From positions 1-26,124 of IMG/VR virus record IMGVR_UViG_2698536443_000009: a stretch of DNA of 26,124 bases; one strand, given 5' to 3'. Below are positions 6,279-22,427 of this stretch, piece after piece. Position 1 is the stretch's first letter; every line of letters begins with the position of its first letter. The DNA is from a virus. Lineage: Duplodnaviria > Heunggongvirae > Uroviricota > Caudoviricetes. The notes beneath the pieces were generated by a model, which saw only the letters and a list, made by a program, of their open reading frames with translations, did no database searches and was not told the DNA's origin. The translations under genes were made by a program, and so were the position numbers.

Positions 6279-7697
6279 ATGCCGATTCAGCAACTTCCGC
6301 TTATGAAAGGTGTCGGCAAAGACTTTCGAAACGCCGACTATATCGACTATCTGCCAGTGAATATGTTGGCTACACCCAAAGAAATCCTCAACAGCAGCGG
6401 ATATCTTCGCTCATTCCCGGGCATTGCCAAACGTTCTGATGTGAACGGTGTATCTCGAGGCGTCGAGTACAACATGGCGCAGAATGCTGTCTATCGTGTG
6501 TGTGGCGGCAAGCTCTACAAAGGCGAAAGCGAAGTCGGTGATGTTGCCGGAAGTGGTCGCGTATCAATGGCGCATGGTCGAACATCACAGGCGGTAGGCG
6601 TTAATGGTCAACTGGTCGAGTATCGCTATGATGGTACGGTTAAAACCGTCTCAAACTGGCCTACAGACAGCGGATTCACGCAGTATGAGTTAGGCTCAGT
6701 CCGCGATATTACGCGCTTACGTGGGCGTTATGCGTGGTCAAAAGACGGAACTGATTCATGGTTTATCACTGACCTTGAAGACGAATCACATCCTGACCGA
6801 TACAGCGCACAATATCGTGCAGAATCGCAGCCTGACGGCATCATCGGCATCGGAACATGGCGAGACTTCATCGTCTGCTTTGGCTCATCGACGATTGAAT
6901 ATTTCTCCCTGACGGGCGCAACCACTGTTGGTGCCGCTTTGTATGTCGCCCAGCCATCGTTGATGGTGCAAAAAGGAATCGCCGGAACTTACTGCAAAAC
7001 GCCGTTTGCTGATTCCTATGCGTTCATCAGCAATCCGGCAACAGGTGCGCCGTCTGTGTATATCATCGGCTCCGGCCAGGTATCACCAATCGCCAGCGCG
7101 AGCATTGAGAAAATTCTCCGCTCCTACACTGCTGATGAACTGGCTGATGGTGTGATGGAGTCTCTGCGATTTGATGCGCATGAGCTGCTGATTATCCATC
7201 TTCCGCGCCATGTTCTCGTGTACGACGCATCTTCAAGCGCCAATGGTCCGCAATGGTGTGTGCTGAAAACAGGCCTGTATGACGATGTGTACCGCGCTAT
7301 CGACTTCATTTACGAAGGCAATCAGATAACGTGCGGCGATAAGCTGGAATCCGTGACCGGGAAACTGCAATTCGATATCAGCAGCCAGTATGACAAGCAG
7401 CAGGAACACCTGCTGTTTACTCCACTCTTCAAAGCAGATAACGCCAGATGCTTTGATCTGGAGGTGGAATCATCGACGGGTGTTGCTCAGTACGCTGACC
7501 GCCTTTTTCTCTCTGCAACCACTGACGGCATAAATTACGGACGTGAGCAGATGATTGAGCAGAATGAACCGTTCATTTACGACAAACGCGTTTTGTGGAA
7601 GCGTGTCGGGCGCATCAGGAAAAATGTCGGCTTCAAACTTCGCGTTATCACGAAGTCACCTGTCACTCTGTCTGGCGCTCAGATAAGGATTGAGTAA
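6279..7697 (+). CDS. Tail hub protein, P22 gp10-like
   Basis: 472 aa, the same length as P22 gp10, located between the gp4-like and gp26-like genes. Identification is by synteny and size. Confidence 0.75.
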
Positions 7698-8650
7698 TGG
7701 CGGATTCGAATCTCAATGTGCCGGTAATCATTCAGGCTACACGGCTCGACACATCAATCCTTCCACGCAATATCTTCTCGCAGTCGTATCTGCTTTACGT
7801 TATCGCACAGGGTACTGATGTTGGTAACGTGGCTAACAAGGCCAACGAAGCAGGGAAGGGGGCTTATGATGCACAGGTGAAGAATGATGAGCAGGATGTC
7901 ACCCTTGCAGACCATGAATCCAGAATTGAAGCTGCTGAAGCAACTCTCATCAATCATGAACATAGAATTGCAGCAGCGGAAAGCACTCTTGCAGAACATG
8001 AAACAAGGATTACGGCTGCTGAAACAGAGCTGGCTGATCACGAGACGCGAATTGCTGCCAATGAATCTGAGTTAGCAAACCATGATGCGCGCATAACTCA
8101 GAATACAACCGATATCGACGCACTTGATACCAGGCTCACAGCGGCAGAGGGAAGTATTTCGACGCTACAAAGCACAGCTGGTGATCACTCAACAAGAATA
8201 TCTGCGCTTGAGTATGCCACCACGCGCAAGAAATCAGAGGTTGTTTACTCAGGGGTATCGGTAACAATTCCGACAGCGCCTACCAACCTTGTTAGTCTGC
8301 TGAAAACGCTCACGCCGTCATCCGGCACGCTGGCACCATTCTTCGACACCGTTAACAACAAGATGGTTGTGTTCAACGAGAACAAAACCTTGTTCTTCAA
8401 GCTGTCGATCGTCGGGACGTGGCCCAGCGGAACCGCCAACAGGTCAATGCAACTAACATTTTCCGGCTCTGTTCCTGACACACTGGTAAGCAGTCGCAAC
8501 TCGGCGACAACGACCGATAACATCCTGTTAGCTACGTTCTTCAGCGTGGATAAAGACGGCTTTCTTGCCACAAATGGCAGCACGTTAACCATTCAGTCAA
8601 ATGGTGCGGCGTTTACTGCCACAACCATCAAGATAATCGCGGAGCAGTAA
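7697..8650 (+). CDS. Tail needle protein, P22 gp26-like, with extended C-terminal domain
   Basis: The N-terminus [43 protein letters not shown]...[14 protein letters not shown] is near-identical in pattern to the P22 gp26 N-terminus. It is followed by coiled-coil heptad repeats and a about 150 aa C-terminal domain absent from P22 gp26 (233 aa). Confidence 0.85.
7901..8110 (+). repeat. Five imperfect tandem 42-nt (14-aa) repeats encoding the coiled-coil core of the tail needle
   Basis: Translated units [14 protein letters not shown] / [14 protein letters not shown] / [14 protein letters not shown] / [14 protein letters not shown] / [14 protein letters not shown], read directly from the ORF. 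Confidence 0.55.
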
Positions 8651-9105
8651 TGATTCAGTTCAAACCAACGCGAAACATCGACCTGATCGAAGCTGTCGGA
8701 AATCACCCTGACATTATTGCCGGAAGCAACAACGGTGATGGATACGACTACAAGCCTGAATGCCGTTACTTTGAGGTTAACGTGTACGGTCAGTTTGGCG
8801 GCATTGTTTACTATCAGGAAATTCAGCCGCTTACATTCGATTGCCACGCCATGTACCTGCCAGAGGTTCGTGGATTCAGCAAGGAAATCGGGCTGGCGTT
8901 CTGGCGATACATTCTGACTAACACCACCGTTCAGTGCGTCACATCGTTCGCTGCGCGCAAATTCCGCCACGGTCAGATGTACTGCGCAATGATTGGCCTT
9001 AAGCGTGTAGGAACCATCAAGAAATACTTCAAAGGCGTGGATGACGTGACGTTTTACAGCGCCACACGCGAAGAACTAATCGACTTCCTGAATCACGGGA
9101 GATAG
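8650..9105 (+). CDS. gp14-like protein (position of P22 gene 14)
   Basis: 151 aa ORF between the tail needle and ejection-protein genes; its ATG overlaps the preceding stop (TAATG). Assignment is by synteny only. Confidence 0.55.
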   Translation: MIQFKPTRNIDLIEAVGNHPDIIAGSNNGDGYDYKPECRYFEVNVYGQFGGIVYYQEIQPLTFDCHAMYLPEVRGFSKEIGLAFWRYILTNTTVQCVTSFAARKFRHGQMYCAMIGLKRVGTIKKYFKGVDDVTFYSATREELIDFLNHGR

Positions 9106-9812: not shown

Positions 9813-11201
9813 ATGGCTACTTGGCAAGGATCAAATGGCGGATTGTTGGCTGGTATCGGCGGTGTCAACTCAAACGCTCCGAGCGTAAATGACATCGGCA
9901 ATACGCTTCAGCTTATCAGGCAGAACAATGATATTGAGCGTTCAGGCGCTAACAATGTTGGGCTGACTGCTTTGCAAGGCCTTTCAGGTATTGCGGGGGT
10001 GTTTCAGCAGGAAAAGCAGGCTCAGCGGCAGAAAGAATTTCAGCAGGCATACGCTAATGCTTATGCGTCTGGTGATCGCGGTGCTTTGCGTCAGTTGGCT
10101 ACTCAATATCCAGACCAGATTGAATCCGTTCGTAAAGGCATGGGATTCATTGATGAAGACCAGCGCAATTCTATCGGCACCTTAGCGGCTGGCGCTCGTC
10201 TTGCGGCATCGTCTCCAGAAGCAATGCAATCATGGCTGCAAAACAACGCCAAGGAACTGACTCGCGTCGGTGTTGACCCTAACAACGTTGCTCAGATGTA
10301 TCAGCAGAATCCTTCAGGATTTGGTGAGTTTGTTGATCACCTTGGGATGGCTGCGCTTGGTCCGATTGATTACTTCAATGTTCAGGACAAGATGGCTGGT
10401 CGTGAGATTGATCGCGGAAAACTTGCAGAGACAATCCGCAGCAATCAGGCTGGCGAGGCGCTAACAGCACGAGGCCAGAACATCACGATGCGCGGTCAGG
10501 ACTTATCTGCTTCTACTGCGCGACGCGGGCAGGATTTGGCAATGCAGCGAGCGTCAACAAGAGGAACCGCTGGGAATGATGAGCGTACAGTTCAGTTATC
10601 AGATGGCAGAACTGTAACGGTAGGCGGGAAACTTCACGGCGCTGGGGCTAATGCGTTCTACGAAGGCATCGACAACGAGGGGAATATGGTTCGCGTTCCT
10701 GCCAGTTCAATCGCAGCGCCTGCAACATCGTCTGCATCAGCACAAAACTATGCCATGAAGAAGGATATCGACGCGATCGCAAATGCAGACGCTTCTGCTC
10801 TCGATTTCATGACAGGAATGACAGGCGGTGCAGGTAATCCAGCAATTGGTGCTGATGTTCGCAGCCGATTAACAGGAAAAGAGCAGCGCCAGTTATATAA
10901 CTCAGCACAACGTATTCAGGGCAGAATGCAGAATCAGGGTGTGGCGGCAGCAAGGGACATGGGTGCCAGTGGTATTAACACCGTTGCAGAAGCGAAGATG
11001 TATTTTCAGGGGATGCCGCAGGTTGACTATTCAAGCCCGGAGGCTATGCAGCAGTCGATTCGTGAGATTCAGGAATACACCAACAATTACAACCAACAAT
11101 ATAACGTTAATGTTGGTAAATCTCAGCGGCAGCAATCTCAACCTGCACAGGTATCACAGCCAGCAGCCAGCAGTAACTTTTCTTCACTATGGGGTGATTA
11201 A
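9813..11201 (+). CDS. Ejection protein, P22 gp20-like
   Basis: 462 aa (P22 gp20 is 471 aa), in the syntenic position. RBS AAGGGG. Confidence 0.7.
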
Positions 11202-13198
11202 TGGCTAAAGCATGGAAAGATGTTATCGCCTCTCCACAGTATCAGGCGTTAGCACCAGAACAAAAAGCGCAGGCTCAGGAGCAATACTTCAATGAAGTCG
11301 TGGCCCCGCAAGCCGGAGAAAATGCAGAGCAGGCTAAGCAAGCTTTCTATGCTGCCTATCCATTGCCATCTGTGCAGCAAGTGGAGACACAGCAACCAGT
11401 AGCACAGCAACAACCACAGCAAAGTGGATTTATGTCTGATCTTGGCGAAGCAGTAAAAGAGACTGGTCGCGGACTGGTGCAGGCTGGCGTGAACGTGGCA
11501 AACATACCTGCATCAGTCGCCGATGCTGTAACAAGCGCGGCGGCTTGGGCTGGCGGTAAACTCGGCATTGGCGATGGTACATATCAACCAGCGCCACGAG
11601 TAACAACGCAGGGATTAGAGCAGGACTTTGGCCTTCAGCAAGGTGCGCTGACTCCACAAACGACAGAGGGAAGGGTATTTGCTGAAGCATTGCCTTACCT
11701 CACTCCTGCTGGAGTTGAGAGAGCTGCAACACAGGCACCAACACTTGCTGGTCGAATTGCTCAGGGTGCAACTCGCCTTCTCGCAGAAAACGCAGTTGGA
11801 TCACTTGCTGCAAATAGTGCGAAAGATGATGCGGAAGCACTCGCCACCGATTTAGGCGTTGGTGTGTTGGCTGGCGGTGCTATTAACGCTGCCGGACGTG
11901 GATTAGGTGCTGCTTATCGTGGCGTTCGTGGTGCTATTGCGCCAGAAGCGCAGCAGGCTATCAGATTTGCAGAGCGTGAAGGAGTGCCTCTGCACACCAC
12001 AGACCTGTTACAACCTACTTCCCGCGTCGGAAAAATGGCTCAGACTACAGCAGAAAATATCCCTCTGGCTGGCACAAGCGGAATGAGAGCAACGCAACAG
12101 GAAGCGAGAAGTCAGTTGGTGCAGAGATTTGCCGATAAATTCGGGGAGTATGATCCAGCGGTTGTTATTGACAGCCTTAAAGCGAAAACATCAGGAATTC
12201 GTCGTGCTGCCGGTAATCGACTGGAGCAGGTTCAGAATGCTATGGCTGGAGTAAACATTCAACCTGCGCGAGCAATTCAGCAGATTGATACAGAAATATC
12301 TAACCTGCAGAAGCTTGGTAAGGTTGCTGATAACGAGACTATTTCAAAACTTCAGTCATATCGTGATGAGCTTGTTCGCAATGCTGGTCCTGATGGTCCG
12401 GTCAATCTGGATTTGAAGCAATTAAGCGATCTGCGCAGCCAGTTCAGAATGGACGTGAAGGGTGAGCGACCAGTGTTACCAAACCGTTCCGATGCTGCCA
12501 TTCAGCGAGTTTACAAGGCGATGACCGACGATATCAATGGTGCCATTGGTCAGAATCTTGGCAATGATACTCTTCGTAAATATCAGCAGGCCAATGCCGT
12601 CTACGCTGACGAAGCGGCGAAACTAAAGAATACCAGGCTGAAGAATGTTCTCATGAAAGGCGACCTGACGCCGGAAGTTGTCAACAACATGCTATTCAGC
12701 AAGAACAAATCGGAAATTAAGACTCTGTATAACTCAGTTGGTCGTGTTGGCAGGGCGCAAATGCGCAATGGCATCATTGGAAAGGCGATGGAGAAATCAG
12801 GTGGTTCCCCTGACCAGTTCCTTCGGCAACTTAACATCCTGCAAAACCAGACTGGCATCACATTTAAAGGTCAGGAAGCCGCTTATCTGAAAGGATTGAA
12901 AAACTACCTGCAATCCACGCAACAGGCTGCAAAAGCAGCAGTAACAACACCAACAGGGCAGCAAACCATCCCGTTCATTATCGGGTATGGGACGGCAATG
13001 AACCCGGCGACAACTGGCGCAGCGGTAAGCTACGGACTTCTTACTCGCGCCTATGAGAGCGAGCCATTCAGAAATGCAATGCTCCGAATGGCAAACACAC
13101 CACGCGGATCAACAGCGTTTGAGAAAGCCATGCAGCAGGCGCAAAAGGCCATTAACGCCCTGACTCAGGGTGCCAAGTCTGATGCGTTGTCAGAATAG
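11201..13198 (+). CDS. Ejection protein, P22 gp16-like
   Basis: 665 aa (P22 gp16 is 609 aa), last gene of the ejection trio, with a TAATG overlap to the preceding gene. Confidence 0.7.
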   Translation: MAKAWKDVIASPQYQALAPEQKAQAQEQYFNEVVAPQAGENAEQAKQAFYAAYPLPSVQQVETQQPVAQQQPQQSGFMSDLGEAVKETGRGLVQAGVNVANIPASVADAVTSAAAWAGGKLGIGDGTYQPAPRVTTQGLEQDFGLQQGALTPQTTEGRVFAEALPYLTPAGVERAATQAPTLAGRIAQGATRLLAENAVGSLAANSAKDDAEALATDLGVGVLAGGAINAAGRGLGAAYRGVRGAIAPEAQQAIRFAEREGVPLHTTDLLQPTSRVGKMAQTTAENIPLAGTSGMRATQQEARSQLVQRFADKFGEYDPAVVIDSLKAKTSGIRRAAGNRLEQVQNAMAGVNIQPARAIQQIDTEISNLQKLGKVADNETISKLQSYRDELVRNAGPDGPVNLDLKQLSDLRSQFRMDVKGERPVLPNRSDAAIQRVYKAMTDDINGAIGQNLGNDTLRKYQQANAVYADEAAKLKNTRLKNVLMKGDLTPEVVNNMLFSKNKSEIKTLYNSVGRVGRAQMRNGIIGKAMEKSGGSPDQFLRQLNILQNQTGITFKGQEAAYLKGLKNYLQSTQQAAKAAVTTPTGQQTIPFIIGYGTAMNPATTGAAVSYGLLTRAYESEPFRNAMLRMANTPRGSTAFEKAMQQAQKAINALTQGAKSDALSE

Positions 13199-13267
13199 CT
13201 TCGCAAACACCAGGAACGTGCAAAAACCAAATATGTAGAACGCAATATTCATCATATCTCTTTGCAT
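13190..13267 (-). CDS. Candidate small hydrophobic peptide (25 aa, MQRDMMNIAFYIFGFCTFLVFAKLF) downstream of mnt
   Basis: On the minus strand, GGAGG (13276-13272) lies 4 nt before an ATG at 13267; the ORF runs to a TGA at 13192-13190. It is too short for the ORF track. It occupies the position where P22 carries sieA/hkcC. Confidence 0.25.
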   Translation of the reverse strand: MQRDMMNIAFYIFGFCTFLVFAKLF

Positions 13268-13287
13268 AAATCCTCCGTAATGGATGG

Positions 13288-13551
13288 TTAGTTGCTGTCT
13301 TTTTTATATAGCTCCTTTAGCGTGTCAAAGACAATTTTCTTAACCATATCGGATTGTTGTTCTGCCATACGCTCTGCATCGTCAATGTAAACTGATGCAG
13401 AGCTTTGTTTATCCAGTGATTCTTCAATCGCTGCAATTATCTCTGAGTTCAGAGACCTGTTATTCATCTTCGCACGCTGTTTAATCTTCGCGTGGAGTTC
13501 ATGCGGAAGTCTCAAGTGAAACTGCGCCTCGTCGTATTTGCTGTACATCAT
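13288..13551 (-). CDS. mnt: Mnt repressor (Arc/MetJ ribbon-helix-helix family), P22 immI region
   Basis: From the MMYSKYDE start, the protein aligns along its length with P22 Mnt: FHLRLPHELHAKIKQRAKMNNRSLNSEIIAAIEESLDK versus FNFRMPMEVREKLKFRAEANGRSMNSELLQIVQDALSK, and DDAERMAEQQSDMVKKIVFDTLKELYKK versus NDAERLADEQSELVKKMVFDTLKDLYKK. The track ORF is extended upstream to 13632; the start at 13551 (or 13548) has a GGTGAGG RBS. Confidence 0.85.
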   Translation of the reverse strand: MMYSKYDEAQFHLRLPHELHAKIKQRAKMNNRSLNSEIIAAIEESLDKQSSASVYIDDAERMAEQQSDMVKKIVFDTLKELYKKDSN

Positions 13552-13962
13552 CAATGCCTCACCTAATGGGTGGAATGGCATCGTAAAACCTACTGTACAA
13601 ATCAACAATCGTACCGTTTCGGTATGTAACAAACGCCAACCGTAGCCATGCTGCGGCGATTCCTTGTATCTGGAGCAAATTAAATGACAGATATTATAAA
13701 TAGGAATTTTTATTTAATAATATTTGAAAATTAAAATCATGGACGATAGGAATAAAAGTAGTACTTGTCATTTTTAAGTGACGCATTAAACGCATAAAGC
13801 ATATGTCTGTTGATCAAGATTCTTACTTGTTGTAAAATAATTGTCCTGTTCATGTTGCATGGTTTTAAAATGAATAGAAGATTATTTTTCAAAACAATTG
13901 CATCTTTGTCTGCAGTCATTCCGTTTTCTTCAATATCTAAATTTTCAAACAGGATGACTAAT
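13552..13962. promoter_or_regulatory. AT-rich control region between mnt and the tailspike gene (expected Pmnt, possible operator remnants and tailspike promoter)
   Basis: About 410 bp of AT-rich non-coding sequence with several inverted repeats (CACC-N6-GGTG near the mnt start; AAATGACA ... TGTCATTT separated by about 75 bp). P22 has arc and ant here; they are absent. Confidence 0.35.
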
Positions 13963-16194
13963 ATGCCTGATATAACTCCAAATGTTGTAATTGGGATGCC
14001 TTCGCAACTCTTCACTATGGCTCGCTCTTTTAAAGCGGTAGCCAATGGCAAAATTTATATAGGAAAAATTGACACTGACCCGGTAAATCCTGAAAACCAA
14101 ATTCAGGTTTATGTAGAGAACGAAGACGGTTCTCACGTTCCTGTTTCGCAACCAATCATCATTAACGCTGCTGGTTATCCGGTATATAACGGACAGATTG
14201 CCAAATTCGTAACCGTGCAAGGCCATTCAATGGCTGTTTATGATGCATACGGTGCGCAGCAGTTCTATTTTCCTAATGTGCTGAAGTATGACCCTGATCA
14301 GTTTAGAACAATAATAGAGTCAAATTATGGTGCGGGGCATGTTGGTACTTCGTCTGGACTAACAATTCAGCAGTTGATTGATTCTTTTATTGTAGTTACA
14401 CCACAAATGTTTGGTGAATCTGGAAAGTCAAATGATTCAACAATAGCAATTAACTCTGCATTGGACTATCTTGAGTCTCTAGGTGGTGGGATTATTTATC
14501 TTCCTCCAGGTAAATATTACGTCAGCATTGAAAAATCAGGTCATAATTATTCATGCATTAGAGTTCCCGCTAACGTAACTTTCTGTGGGGCTGGTGCTGG
14601 ATCTACCATCATTCAGAGACTACCCACTGAGAGGGGGATGGATGGTGTCTTGATAACAAATAAATATTATGATACTAGAACTGGCTATGGAGCTGCCGGC
14701 AATATTGTTTTTAGAGATTTTACAATCACTGACGGTAGCGCAACCCCAACAAGGGATTATGGTGATTTAATCGGTTTAGGTCATAGCAAAAATGTAACTA
14801 TAGAGAGAGTGGAGCAAGGGAGACATGATCAACATTTTGTTGATATTGCAGGATCAACCGATGTAACAGTCAAAGACTGTCACGGGTCGTGTGATATGGA
14901 GGTGGACCATATTACGTGGAATTGTGATATACAGATTGATTCCGCTCAACCAAACGCAATACTTGGAATTAAAGTTGATGGCACACCTAGCACAAATATA
15001 ATTATTAGCGGAAATAAACTTCAAAACAAAAGCTCAAATTTGCAAATTGAAATAGGACATGCTGGGGGAGTATATAGAAATATTATTATTTCTGATAACA
15101 TACTTGATGGGGCATATTTTCAAGACTCATCAGTTATTGGTTGTAACTCAACAACAGCTACCATTATCAATTTGAGCATAAATAACAATCAAATACTAAC
15201 AAATAATATAAATTCAAGAGGTGTTAATCTTTATTGTCTTGGGAATAACGAAAAACTTATTGGTATTTCTTTTAGTAATAATATTATAAGAGGTTATGCT
15301 AGGATTGGTGCATGGTTTGGGACTAATGGTAATTATACTGGAACGAAGTTTCCTCATGATGATGTAACAATAATAGGAAATAAATTCTTTCTAACATCGC
15401 CTTCATCTGGAACATTTGTTCAAGGTGTTGTTGTTGCTGGTTGGCGATCTGTTGTATGTAGTGATAATATAGTTGAGATATATTCTGATAATGAATTTTC
15501 TTCAGGGTGTTCGGTGATATCAGTTTGGAAAAATGGTAGTGCTAAGGTAAGTGATAACAATATCTCTAGAACATGTGGTGCAACACCTGACGTATCATCT
15601 TCAGTTATTTCGTTGATACTAATCACCCCTGAACCTTCCAGCATTGATAAGGCGTCATCAATCCATATTAATGGAAATGCTTTCTTTGGAGATATTCCTA
15701 GATATGCAATAAATCACAAAGAAGGGTGGATTGAAGGATATGACATGATAGTTGTATCAGGCTCTCATGGTAGATTTAACCAAACATTTATAGGCACGCA
15801 AGGGGCGCATATGTATGAAACGTACCCAATTTCTGATATGACAAATTTCAATCAACCAGTGTCAATAAATGGTCAATATAGAAGGCAGGTATACAGAGGA
15901 AATATTTACAAGTCAACGTTCAATTTGAAGAAAAATGGAAGTGAAACAAGTGGGGCTAAGGTGGATTTTTTTATATCTAATGAACGCTCAAAAATAACAG
16001 GTTCTGAACAATTGAATGTAGCATATATATCTCCAACTGAGTCTGTGGGAATCACCGCTACATCAATAGATTTGTCATCAGGAACACTTAATATAATTAC
16101 TGGAACAAATGGTGTATCTATGAATTTAAATCCATCCAATAAGCAGCCTGAAATAAGAAATAGCGCGTATATAAGCGCAAGGATTTCCATTTAA
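13963..16194 (+). CDS. Tailspike protein: P22 gp9-like head-binding N-terminal domain plus divergent receptor-binding domain
   Basis: [97 protein letters not shown]...[10 protein letters not shown] matches the P22 tailspike N-terminal domain closely. AGGA RBS 8 nt upstream of the ATG at 13963. The rest is AT-rich and unrelated to P22 gp9. The track ORF starts further upstream at 13810. Confidence 0.9.
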
Positions 16195-16985
16195 AATTCA
16201 GAAATTAGCCATAAAAAGCATGAAGTCTATCATCCAAGTGTCAATCGATCGATGACTTGCGGTGGTTGATGAGACAAAACTGAGACACACAAAGCTTTGC
16301 ACTGGATTGCAAGGCTTTGTGCTCTTCGATAGTGGTTAAGGTGGATCACTCCACCTTTTCATCAAGCCAGTCTGCCCACCACTGCATCATTTCTCTGCGC
16401 TTAATGTAGCGGATGCCTCACTATCACATAGTGATGGTTCATTACTGCTTTGTAGAATTGATAGAGAACTGAGGATAAAAAGATATCCCAAAACCCCAAA
16501 ATCTCATCTTTAGGATTTGCAGAAAGGGAGGCGTGAACAGATACCTGCGCATGAAGACGGAACTAGTCCAGATGTGATATTTGTGGTGATCACATACATC
16601 ATTAACGATGCTCGTTATGGTGAGTTTGATGACTACCCGCTGAAGTGAAAATTGTGTTGTGTACCAAATTGCGTACCAAACTAAAATCACAAATCATGAA
16701 ACCCTTGTTCATGGCGGTTCTCAGGGGTGTTGCGCGTAATCGTGAAACAAAAAGGTAGATTGTTGCTTACCGTCATTCATCATTAGGTTAAATCCGTTAT
16801 TTCTGCTGTCTGCCAGAGTATCAAATATCACCGTGCTAATCAGCTTTAGCGCCACAATTTGGCAGCGAGTGGCAACAGATCATGTCAGATAAAAATGAGA
16901 GGGTAGTCACATTTTCTTGCACTTTATTCCAGCCAGTTCATAAGTATTTCCGTAAAAAGAACAGCTATTTGAAACTCCTGAGGGT

Positions 16986-21404: not shown

Positions 21405-21599
21405 TTACAGCAACTGGTGAGGGCTGGCATAAGTTGCCGGTGTTTCGGTAGAGTCACGGTCATCCACCACGCGGAGTGAATAACCGTTTTCAGCGGCCTT
21501 ATTAATCAGTTCAGTGATATTAACACCATCAATGTCAACGACAATGTGCCCCATATCCAGCGCCTGTACGTTAACGCTGTCGGCTTCCAGTGTCATCAT
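21405..21599 (-). CDS. yeeW: YeeW-family small protein (64 aa), CP4-44-like element
   Basis: 64 aa ORF overlapping the stop of the cbtA-like gene; matches the size and position of E. coli yeeW, the last gene of the CP4-44 toxin-antitoxin block. Confidence 0.8.
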   Translation of the reverse strand: MMTLEADSVNVQALDMGHIVVDIDGVNITELINKAAENGYSLRVVDDRDSTETPATYASPHQLL

Positions 21600-21970
21600 T
21601 TCGCCTCCGGATACTTACCCAGGGTAATGTTATTTACCGTTCTGTAATTGTCGCGGGTCATCAGGCCGGTCGCCCTGCGAGCCCGGAGGATATCGATGCT
21701 GTTTATTAACTGAGAGCGGGTACAGGCGCTGAATCCCGGCTGGTCGGTACGCACCAGCGCGTATTTTTCCACGAGAAAGTTCACCGCATCACACAGTGAA
21801 ATGCCTGCCTCAATATGCTGCTCAATCACACGTTCATCGGCAAAAGGTGTGTCATTCAGTGTGAGGCCATAGTGCTGGTCCAGCAGTCGGGACAGCAGTA
21901 TCTGCCAGATTTCAACAGGAGACGGGCGAGAACTGGCCGCCTGCCCGGGTAATACAGGTAATGTTTTCAT
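21596..21970 (-). CDS. cbtA: CbtA (YeeV) family toxin, inhibitor of FtsZ/MreB polymerisation
   Basis: 124 aa, the same length as E. coli YeeV, directly downstream of the cognate antitoxin gene in the conserved yeeT-yeeU-yeeV-yeeW order. Confidence 0.88.
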   Translation of the reverse strand: MKTLPVLPGQAASSRPSPVEIWQILLSRLLDQHYGLTLNDTPFADERVIEQHIEAGISLCDAVNFLVEKYALVRTDQPGFSACTRSQLINSIDILRARRATGLMTRDNYRTVNNITLGKYPEAK

Positions 21971-22058
21971 ACTGAAGATTTTCCTGATATGCAGATATAA
22001 AAATGGAAAAGTGGCGTGGTGAAAACACCAGGCCGTAGCAGAAGGCTATTCTGGAGAG

Positions 22059-22427
22059 TTAATTTTTCATTTCGGGCGTCGGATAAACAGCCAGATAAAC
22101 GTAACCACAACTGCTGAGGGTATCGGCTTTGCAGGTCAGCCCTTTTGCATACAGCGTGACGGTATGCTGATGGCGGGGATTCAGTTCACCGCTGGTGAGC
22201 ATGAGTTCCAGTTGTTTCATCAGCAGCGGAAAGGCCTGGTCCAGGTGGTACGCATCTGCATCGCTGAACAGGCCTCTGATACCGGCGCGGTCGGCAAGGT
22301 AATGCAACCGGTTACCCTCCTGCACCAGACGTGCCCCGAAACAGGGCGTCACGGTGCAGGGCAGCCCCCACCAGGGGCGGTCGTGATTGTCGTCGGGAAG
22401 TGTTGTCCCGGGGAGTGTGTCTGACAC
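22059..22427 (-). CDS. cbeA: CbeA (YeeU) family antitoxin
   Basis: 122 aa beginning MSDTLPGTTLPDDNHDRPWWGLP..., consistent with the YeeU/YfjZ/YafW antitoxin family; adjacent to the toxin gene. Confidence 0.88.
   Translation of the reverse strand: MSDTLPGTTLPDDNHDRPWWGLPCTVTPCFGARLVQEGNRLHYLADRAGIRGLFSDADAYHLDQAFPLLMKQLELMLTSGELNPRHQHTVTLYAKGLTCKADTLSSCGYVYLAVYPTPEMKN

Follow-up and report, generated by a model that had tools for sequence, protein, structure and literature searches.

The window considered here (the whole stretch of DNA that was analysed, 26,124 nucleotides, positions 1 to 26,124 of IMG/VR record IMGVR_UViG_2698536443_000009) covers only the late half of a prophage. The genes for gp4, gp10, the tail needle, gp14, gp7, gp20, a protein at the gp16 position and the tailspike follow one another in the canonical order of a P22-like late operon. 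A gp4 homologue (PF11650) stands at the head of this virion module, and a homologue of gp10, the tail hub that the needle would plug, lies directly upstream of the needle gene (6279..7697, + strand; 472 aa; PF11134, E = 7e-301). The tail needle gene itself occupies 7697..8650 (+); its ORF is real and intact, encodes 317 aa plus the stop codon and is orthologous to gene 26 of P22 and gene 9 of Sf6, its product being of the HS1 type. Its ATG overlaps the stop codon of the gp10 gene (TAATG) and its own stop codon likewise overlaps the ATG of the next gene, a tight coupling that is typical of a phage late operon. Downstream, on the same strand, are a gp14 homologue (DUF2824; 8650..9105, +), the ejection proteins gp7 (PF25688; 9108..9803, +) and gp20 (PF16928; 9813..11201, +) and a 665-aa protein at the gp16 position (11201..13198, +), PF11039 being a further Pfam profile found downstream of the needle. 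Phages JEP4 and Sf6 share this gene order around the needle.

For the 665-aa protein at the gp16 position, no Pfam profile scores at E ≤ 1e-5. In the closest E. coli prophage, integrated at the same site, this slot is filled by a 797-aa 'lytic transglycosylase domain-containing protein', so that the gp16 slot is also mosaic. The ORF of the tailspike follows at 13810..16194 (+); its residues 52-164 make up the P22 head-binding domain. The mechanically called ORF runs upstream in frame through a Tat-signal-like stretch, and the real start is likely to be at about 13954 (MTNMPD), giving a protein of 746 aa as against the 780 aa called for it in the tailspike comparison. Its receptor-binding part forms a cluster of its own in a sample of 47 tailspikes. 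Between the gp16-position gene and this tailspike start lie about 750 bp (13199..13953), which leave no room for the immI region (mnt/arc/ant); in phage JEP4 this region separates the last gene for an ejection protein from that for the tailspike.

After the tailspike come dacD, sbmC and yeeA, which are host genes, so the window includes the right-hand boundary of a prophage integrated into an E. coli chromosome. The right end of the prophage proper, between the tailspike stop codon and dacD (16195..16985, about 790 bp), holds no ORF of at least 90 aa and no tRNA, and a scan of the whole window for a tRNA that could serve as attachment site was negative. In a related prophage with this integration site (CP097181), genes for an acyltransferase and an S24 peptidase are present at the right end. 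Further on, at 21596..22427 (-) and on to 26097, the host side of the window carries genes of a CP4-44 type element (the cbtA/cbeA toxin-antitoxin pair, yeeS, yeeT, antirestriction and DUF932 genes), assigned by comparison with the annotated E. coli match and unrelated to the needle.

Identity and occurrence of the needle gene

An exact-sequence look-up placed the needle on 57 contigs, where it is named 'tail needle knob protein'. Its 90% cluster has 1430 members, among them ABV04705.1 of E. coli HS, and 164 of 5426 complete E. coli genomes (~3%) have a match that covers 80% or more of the gene. Of the best 80 IMG/VR loci, 66 match over 317 residues with at least 96% identity. Furthermore, the 317-aa form occurs in the isolated phages JEP4, Gally and vB_EcoP-720R6 (97.5-98.1% identity), and these isolates provide the basis for its function in viable virions. 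The 317-aa allele is thus both stable and common.

Taken together, the gene can be assigned, with a probability of about 95%, to the tail needle of a P22-like (Lederbergvirus) E. coli prophage of the already described HS1 type. A near-identical copy of this needle has been published, its knob crystallised and the protein genetically tested. Its annotation, an HS1-type needle that ends in an Sf6-type knob, is confident and introduces neither a new domain nor a new mechanism; as a discovery, the needle gene matters little.

N-terminal plug

The first 62 residues (7697..7882, +) constitute the plug, or tail-hub-binding, domain. Residues 3-64 match P22 gp26 in chain 8eap_B (E = 2.6e-27), residues 1-132 match 4zxq, and the N-terminal 139 residues match the gp26 structures 2POH and 3C9I (E ~1e-42 to ~3e-42). 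A gp26-homologous plug of about 60 residues is hence present at the N-terminus, and in alignment it is conserved with those of Sf6, HS1 and P22. The original prediction of a gp26-family needle with a conserved N-terminus is borne out by these matches, which extend over residues 1-139.

Coiled-coil shaft and its His-containing units

Residues 63-174 (7883..8218, +) form the coiled-coil shaft, which consists of 16 uninterrupted heptads. It opens with an NxxQD motif (N63, Q66, D67), the asparagine and glutamine of which coordinate Ca2+ from the a and d positions, respectively, in P22 gp26 (PMC13580157), and the heptad register was anchored on these two residues. In this register the a positions read, in order, N, L, I, L, I, L, I, L, I, L, I, I, L, I, A, I, so that Leu or Ile occupies 14 of the 16, while the d positions read Q, H, A, H, A, H, A, H, N, H, N, L, A, L, H, L. 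The shaft is accordingly continuous from the NxxQD motif onwards and compatible with a trimeric coiled coil.

Five tandem 14-residue (42-nt) His-containing units, which had been predicted from the sequence, were recovered at exactly 7901..8110 (+; residues 69-138). Each contains an H-x-x-R-I motif (His at 73, 87, 101, 115 and 129), and the number of identities at an offset of 14 within residues 63-174 is 42, against 9.6±2.9 in shuffled sequences (none of 20000 shuffles reached 42). A degenerate sixth unit that lacks the His continues the same register at 8111..8152 (+), sharing 21-43% amino acid identity with units 1-5. Beside the knob lies a further unit with an H-x-x-R-I motif at His164 (8177..8218, +), which is the recombination partner in a 268-aa deletion variant. 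Each 14-residue unit corresponds to two heptads, and His recurs at every other d position; the array is consequently the sequence form of the coiled coil and not a separate feature. The register would give the presumed trimer a core with six His layers. Apart from these, Ala161 of the window needle sits at a core a position that is occupied by Val in HS1 and in nearly all of the relatives compared.

C-terminal knob

The C-terminal domain (residues 174-317; 8216..8647, +) is an Sf6/HS1-type needle knob with the fold of a TNF-like jellyroll trimer. It matches PF16532 (Phage_tail_NK, Sf6-type phage tail needle knob) with E = 9e-108 and 358 bits, against a cut-off of 27, over all of the profile (positions 1-175 of 175). 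Over residues 167-317 there is no difference from the crystallised HS1 knob (PDB 4K6B), for which the structure at 1.1 Å shows a TNF-like jellyroll trimer (Leavitt et al. 2013, PMC3741392); as the solved structure has the identical sequence, the fold of the window's knob is established. The HS1 structure holds three L-glutamate molecules contacted by E181, K235, S283 and D285, as well as a phosphate ion contacted by S266 and N268 of the conserved S266-R267-N268 triad (PMC3741392), and all of these residues are present in the window needle at the published HS1 positions.

The domain had been described in advance as Ser/Thr-rich and the protein as about 85 aa longer than P22 gp26, and both descriptions are accurate: Ser and Thr make up 28.5% of the C-terminal 144 residues, and the lengths of 317 and 233 aa differ by 84. 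The P22-type tip, defined by homology to gp26 residues 141-233, is absent; the alignment with gp26 ends at about residue 139-159, and the two C-termini are unrelated. These features, the excess of 84 aa and a C-terminus that does not align with the P22 tip, could be read as a novel needle variant in which an expanded array and an additional, uncharacterised C-terminal domain together form a new host-range determinant. Such a reading is extremely improbable, since the C-terminal domain is identical to the published 4K6B and the repeat count to that of HS1. What the original prediction took for an extra domain is the PF16532 knob, and the expanded shaft that it regarded as unusual is the published HS1 state of 317 aa and 16 heptads (PMC3741392); HS1 thus combines the known knob with the identical repeat count, a combination that the original prediction had itself named as its refutation. 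The C-terminal domain of the window needle is therefore the known Sf6-type knob in place of the P22 tip.

Length variation among relatives

A homology search returned 2476 proteins at E ≤ 1e-20, and shaft lengths were measured from NDEQD to LEYA in 134 protein sequences (listed matches and cluster members). Needles of 254, 268, 282, 289, 296, 303, 310, 317, 331, 338 and 345 aa occur among these 134, with matching shafts of 49, 63, 77, 84, 91, 98, 105, 112, 126, 133 and 140 residues, all of them multiples of 7. Copy number thus does vary among relatives, the family covering 7, 9, 11, 12, 13, 14, 15, 16, 18, 19 and 20 heptads, and the 282 and 317 alleles dominate. The changes can be traced to particular units: the 303-aa variant is a fusion of units 4 and 5 (ELADHETRI|TQNTT), the 289-aa variant of units 1 and 3, and the 268-aa variant of unit 4 with the knob-proximal unit, while the 331- and 345-aa variants carry duplications of units 1-2. 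The Sf6 lineage shows a separate series of 254, 296, 310 and 338 aa. In DNA alignments of four variants, clean deletions of 42, 84 and 147 nt and an exact 84-nt tandem duplication were found, and the deletion junctions fall in sequence common to both of the units involved.

Two members of the 90% cluster with other lengths were rejected as repeat changes: the 303-aa member P0005 is a C-terminal truncation, and a 316-aa member has an altered N-terminus. A homologue of 394 aa from Shigella sonnei (P0072) combines a P22_Tail-4 (gp4) Pfam domain with a needle knob, which suggests a deletion that fused gp4 to the needle and removed gp10, or else an assembly artefact.

The His-unit array could in principle be a frequently slipping contingency locus, at which needle length switches often within a lineage. 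The forms of 289, 303, 331 and 345 aa are in keeping with such switching, as they differ by whole units while remaining 90-94% identical to the window needle and show either clean 42/84-nt deletions or the exact 84-nt duplication, with junctions in sequence that the units share. Nevertheless, frequent slippage is very improbable. The units are diverged in DNA, with 36-79% nucleotide identity and a longest in-register exact run of 9 nt (Tandem Repeats Finder detects 2.5 copies only, at 69% match), the 317 form is fixed in the 1430-member cluster and in the 66 IMG/VR loci mentioned above, and the 303-aa form within that cluster is the truncation and not a repeat change. Length change by unequal recombination or slippage does occur in the family but is rare on the evolutionary scale. 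The proposal that tandem repeats allow length variation by slippage accordingly holds across the family (254-345 aa), and it fails as a description of a frequent event in view of the diverged DNA repeats and the stable 317 allele in more than 1400 sequences. Old duplications of His units account for HS1-type shafts being five heptads longer than Sf6 shafts.

What is new in this comparison is a knob-type ladder of 7-20 heptads, wider than the 11-16 of the 2013 paper, together with the mapping of its junctions, and it amounts to a comparative footnote. The natural ladder could serve as a ready allelic series for relating needle length to DNA delivery.

Proposed role in infection

A role for the needle can be proposed by homology to P22 gp26 and Sf6 gp9 (PMC9728967, PMC3741392). 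By analogy with the P22 and Sf6 structures, three needle chains would assemble into a thin fibre, in which the N-terminal ~60 residues would form a helical hairpin that plugs the channel of the gp10 tail hub after DNA packaging and so keeps the genome in the head. Residues 63-174 would build a 16-heptad trimeric coiled coil, the tip of which may reach past the tailspikes. With the O-antigen digested and the virion brought down to the outer membrane by its tailspikes, the needle would be released, which would open the channel to the ejection proteins and to the DNA. Trimerisation, plugging and the release on infection are thus predicted from the P22 and Sf6 homologues.

Since needle tips contact the cell envelope, the tip had been suggested as a determinant of host range or as a trigger of ejection, and published hybrids bear on both suggestions. 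P22 hybrids with the HS1 knob, or with both shaft and knob of Sf6, infect Salmonella normally (PMC3741392). This normal infection shows that the knob does not confer species specificity, and it argues further against a new host-range determinant, for which a hint of host-linked bias can be cited in that none of 48 Salmonella P22-like phages has a knob-type tip (PMC3741392). The hybrid with the HS1 knob releases K+ at 40-70% of the wild-type rate, and published data indicate that shaft residues affect the kinetics of K+ release (PMC3741392). The slower release of the hybrid shows an influence of tip and shaft on the kinetics of DNA delivery, so that the suggestion of an ejection trigger is upheld in part and that of host range is not.

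Needle length and tailspike type

The relation between needle and tailspike was assessed in loci with a complete downstream tailspike, for which tailspike lengths are approximate owing to the choice of start codon. In this sample no association of needle length with tailspike type or length was found. In 42 loci the 16-heptad needle goes with tailspikes of roughly 480-840 aa that fall into about 28 distinct receptor-binding clusters, and the tailspikes of one cluster accompany 11-heptad needles in some loci and 16-heptad needles in others. Moreover, the closest whole-window E. coli match, a prophage likewise integrated at dacD and 96.7% identical over 78% of the window, carries a needle of 282 aa. 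The needle assorts independently of the tailspike, as expected in mosaic P22-like phages, and the range of tailspike types shows that it travels independently of the O-antigen specificity module, which again speaks against a novel host-range determinant.

The same data bear on the idea that shaft length acts as an adaptive molecular ruler for tailspike length or the depth of the host surface layer, with 16 heptads as one of its settings. Strict heptad quantisation over 7-20 heptads implies that many lengths are viable and retained, and the influence of shaft residues on K+ release (PMC3741392) is compatible with tuning. A ruler is nonetheless unlikely: needles of one length serve tailspikes of very different size and type, one tailspike cluster goes with two needle lengths, and the prophage at the dacD site differs in needle length within flanks that are 96.7% identical. 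The dominance of the 282 and 317 alleles is likewise expected from descent, not from tuning. That the knob-type length series is functionally used, through the reach of the tip or the speed of DNA delivery on different surface layers, and is not neutral, is likewise unlikely.

Comparison with named needles

The closest named relative is the HS1 needle of E. coli HS (EcHS_A0316, ABV04705.1), which is 98% identical to the window needle at the same length of 317 aa and has the same 16-heptad shaft, unit order and gene position. Six substitutions distinguish the two (I21V, K54Q, K62R, A107D, T138A and A161V, window residue first); all of them lie within residues 21-161 and none is in the knob. The published HS1 gene has 317 codons, and its shaft of 16 heptads, as compared with 11 in Sf6 and P22, has a predicted length of 210 Å (PMC3741392). 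In the PDB the HS1-type needle is represented by its knob alone, so that the additional five heptads have a modelled conformation.

The needle of the Shigella phage Sf6 (gp9, 282 aa; knob 3RWN) has a plug nearly identical to that of the window and the same architecture and gene neighbourhood. Between HS1 and Sf6, the N-terminal domains are 98% and the knobs 99% identical, as against ~67% for the shaft sequences (PMC3741392). Over residues 167-317, the window needle differs from 3RWN in two positions, S169, which is Asp in Sf6 and belongs to the shaft, and A305, which is Ser in Sf6 and lies in the knob proper. The main difference is in the shaft: Sf6 has 11 heptads with three contiguous His units and the knob-proximal one, whereas the window and other HS1-type needles have five contiguous His units and one, a gain of 35 residues (five heptads).

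The needle of the Salmonella phage P22 (gp26, 233 aa; 2POH, 3C9I) is 84 aa shorter than that of the window. It shares with it a homologous plug, the NxxQD motif of the Ca2+ site and the first His units (LADHExRI, xxHExRI), and has 11 heptads. Its tip is a triple beta-helix with a short inverted coiled coil in place of a knob, and its role is the same, namely that of a channel plug and membrane-proximal needle.
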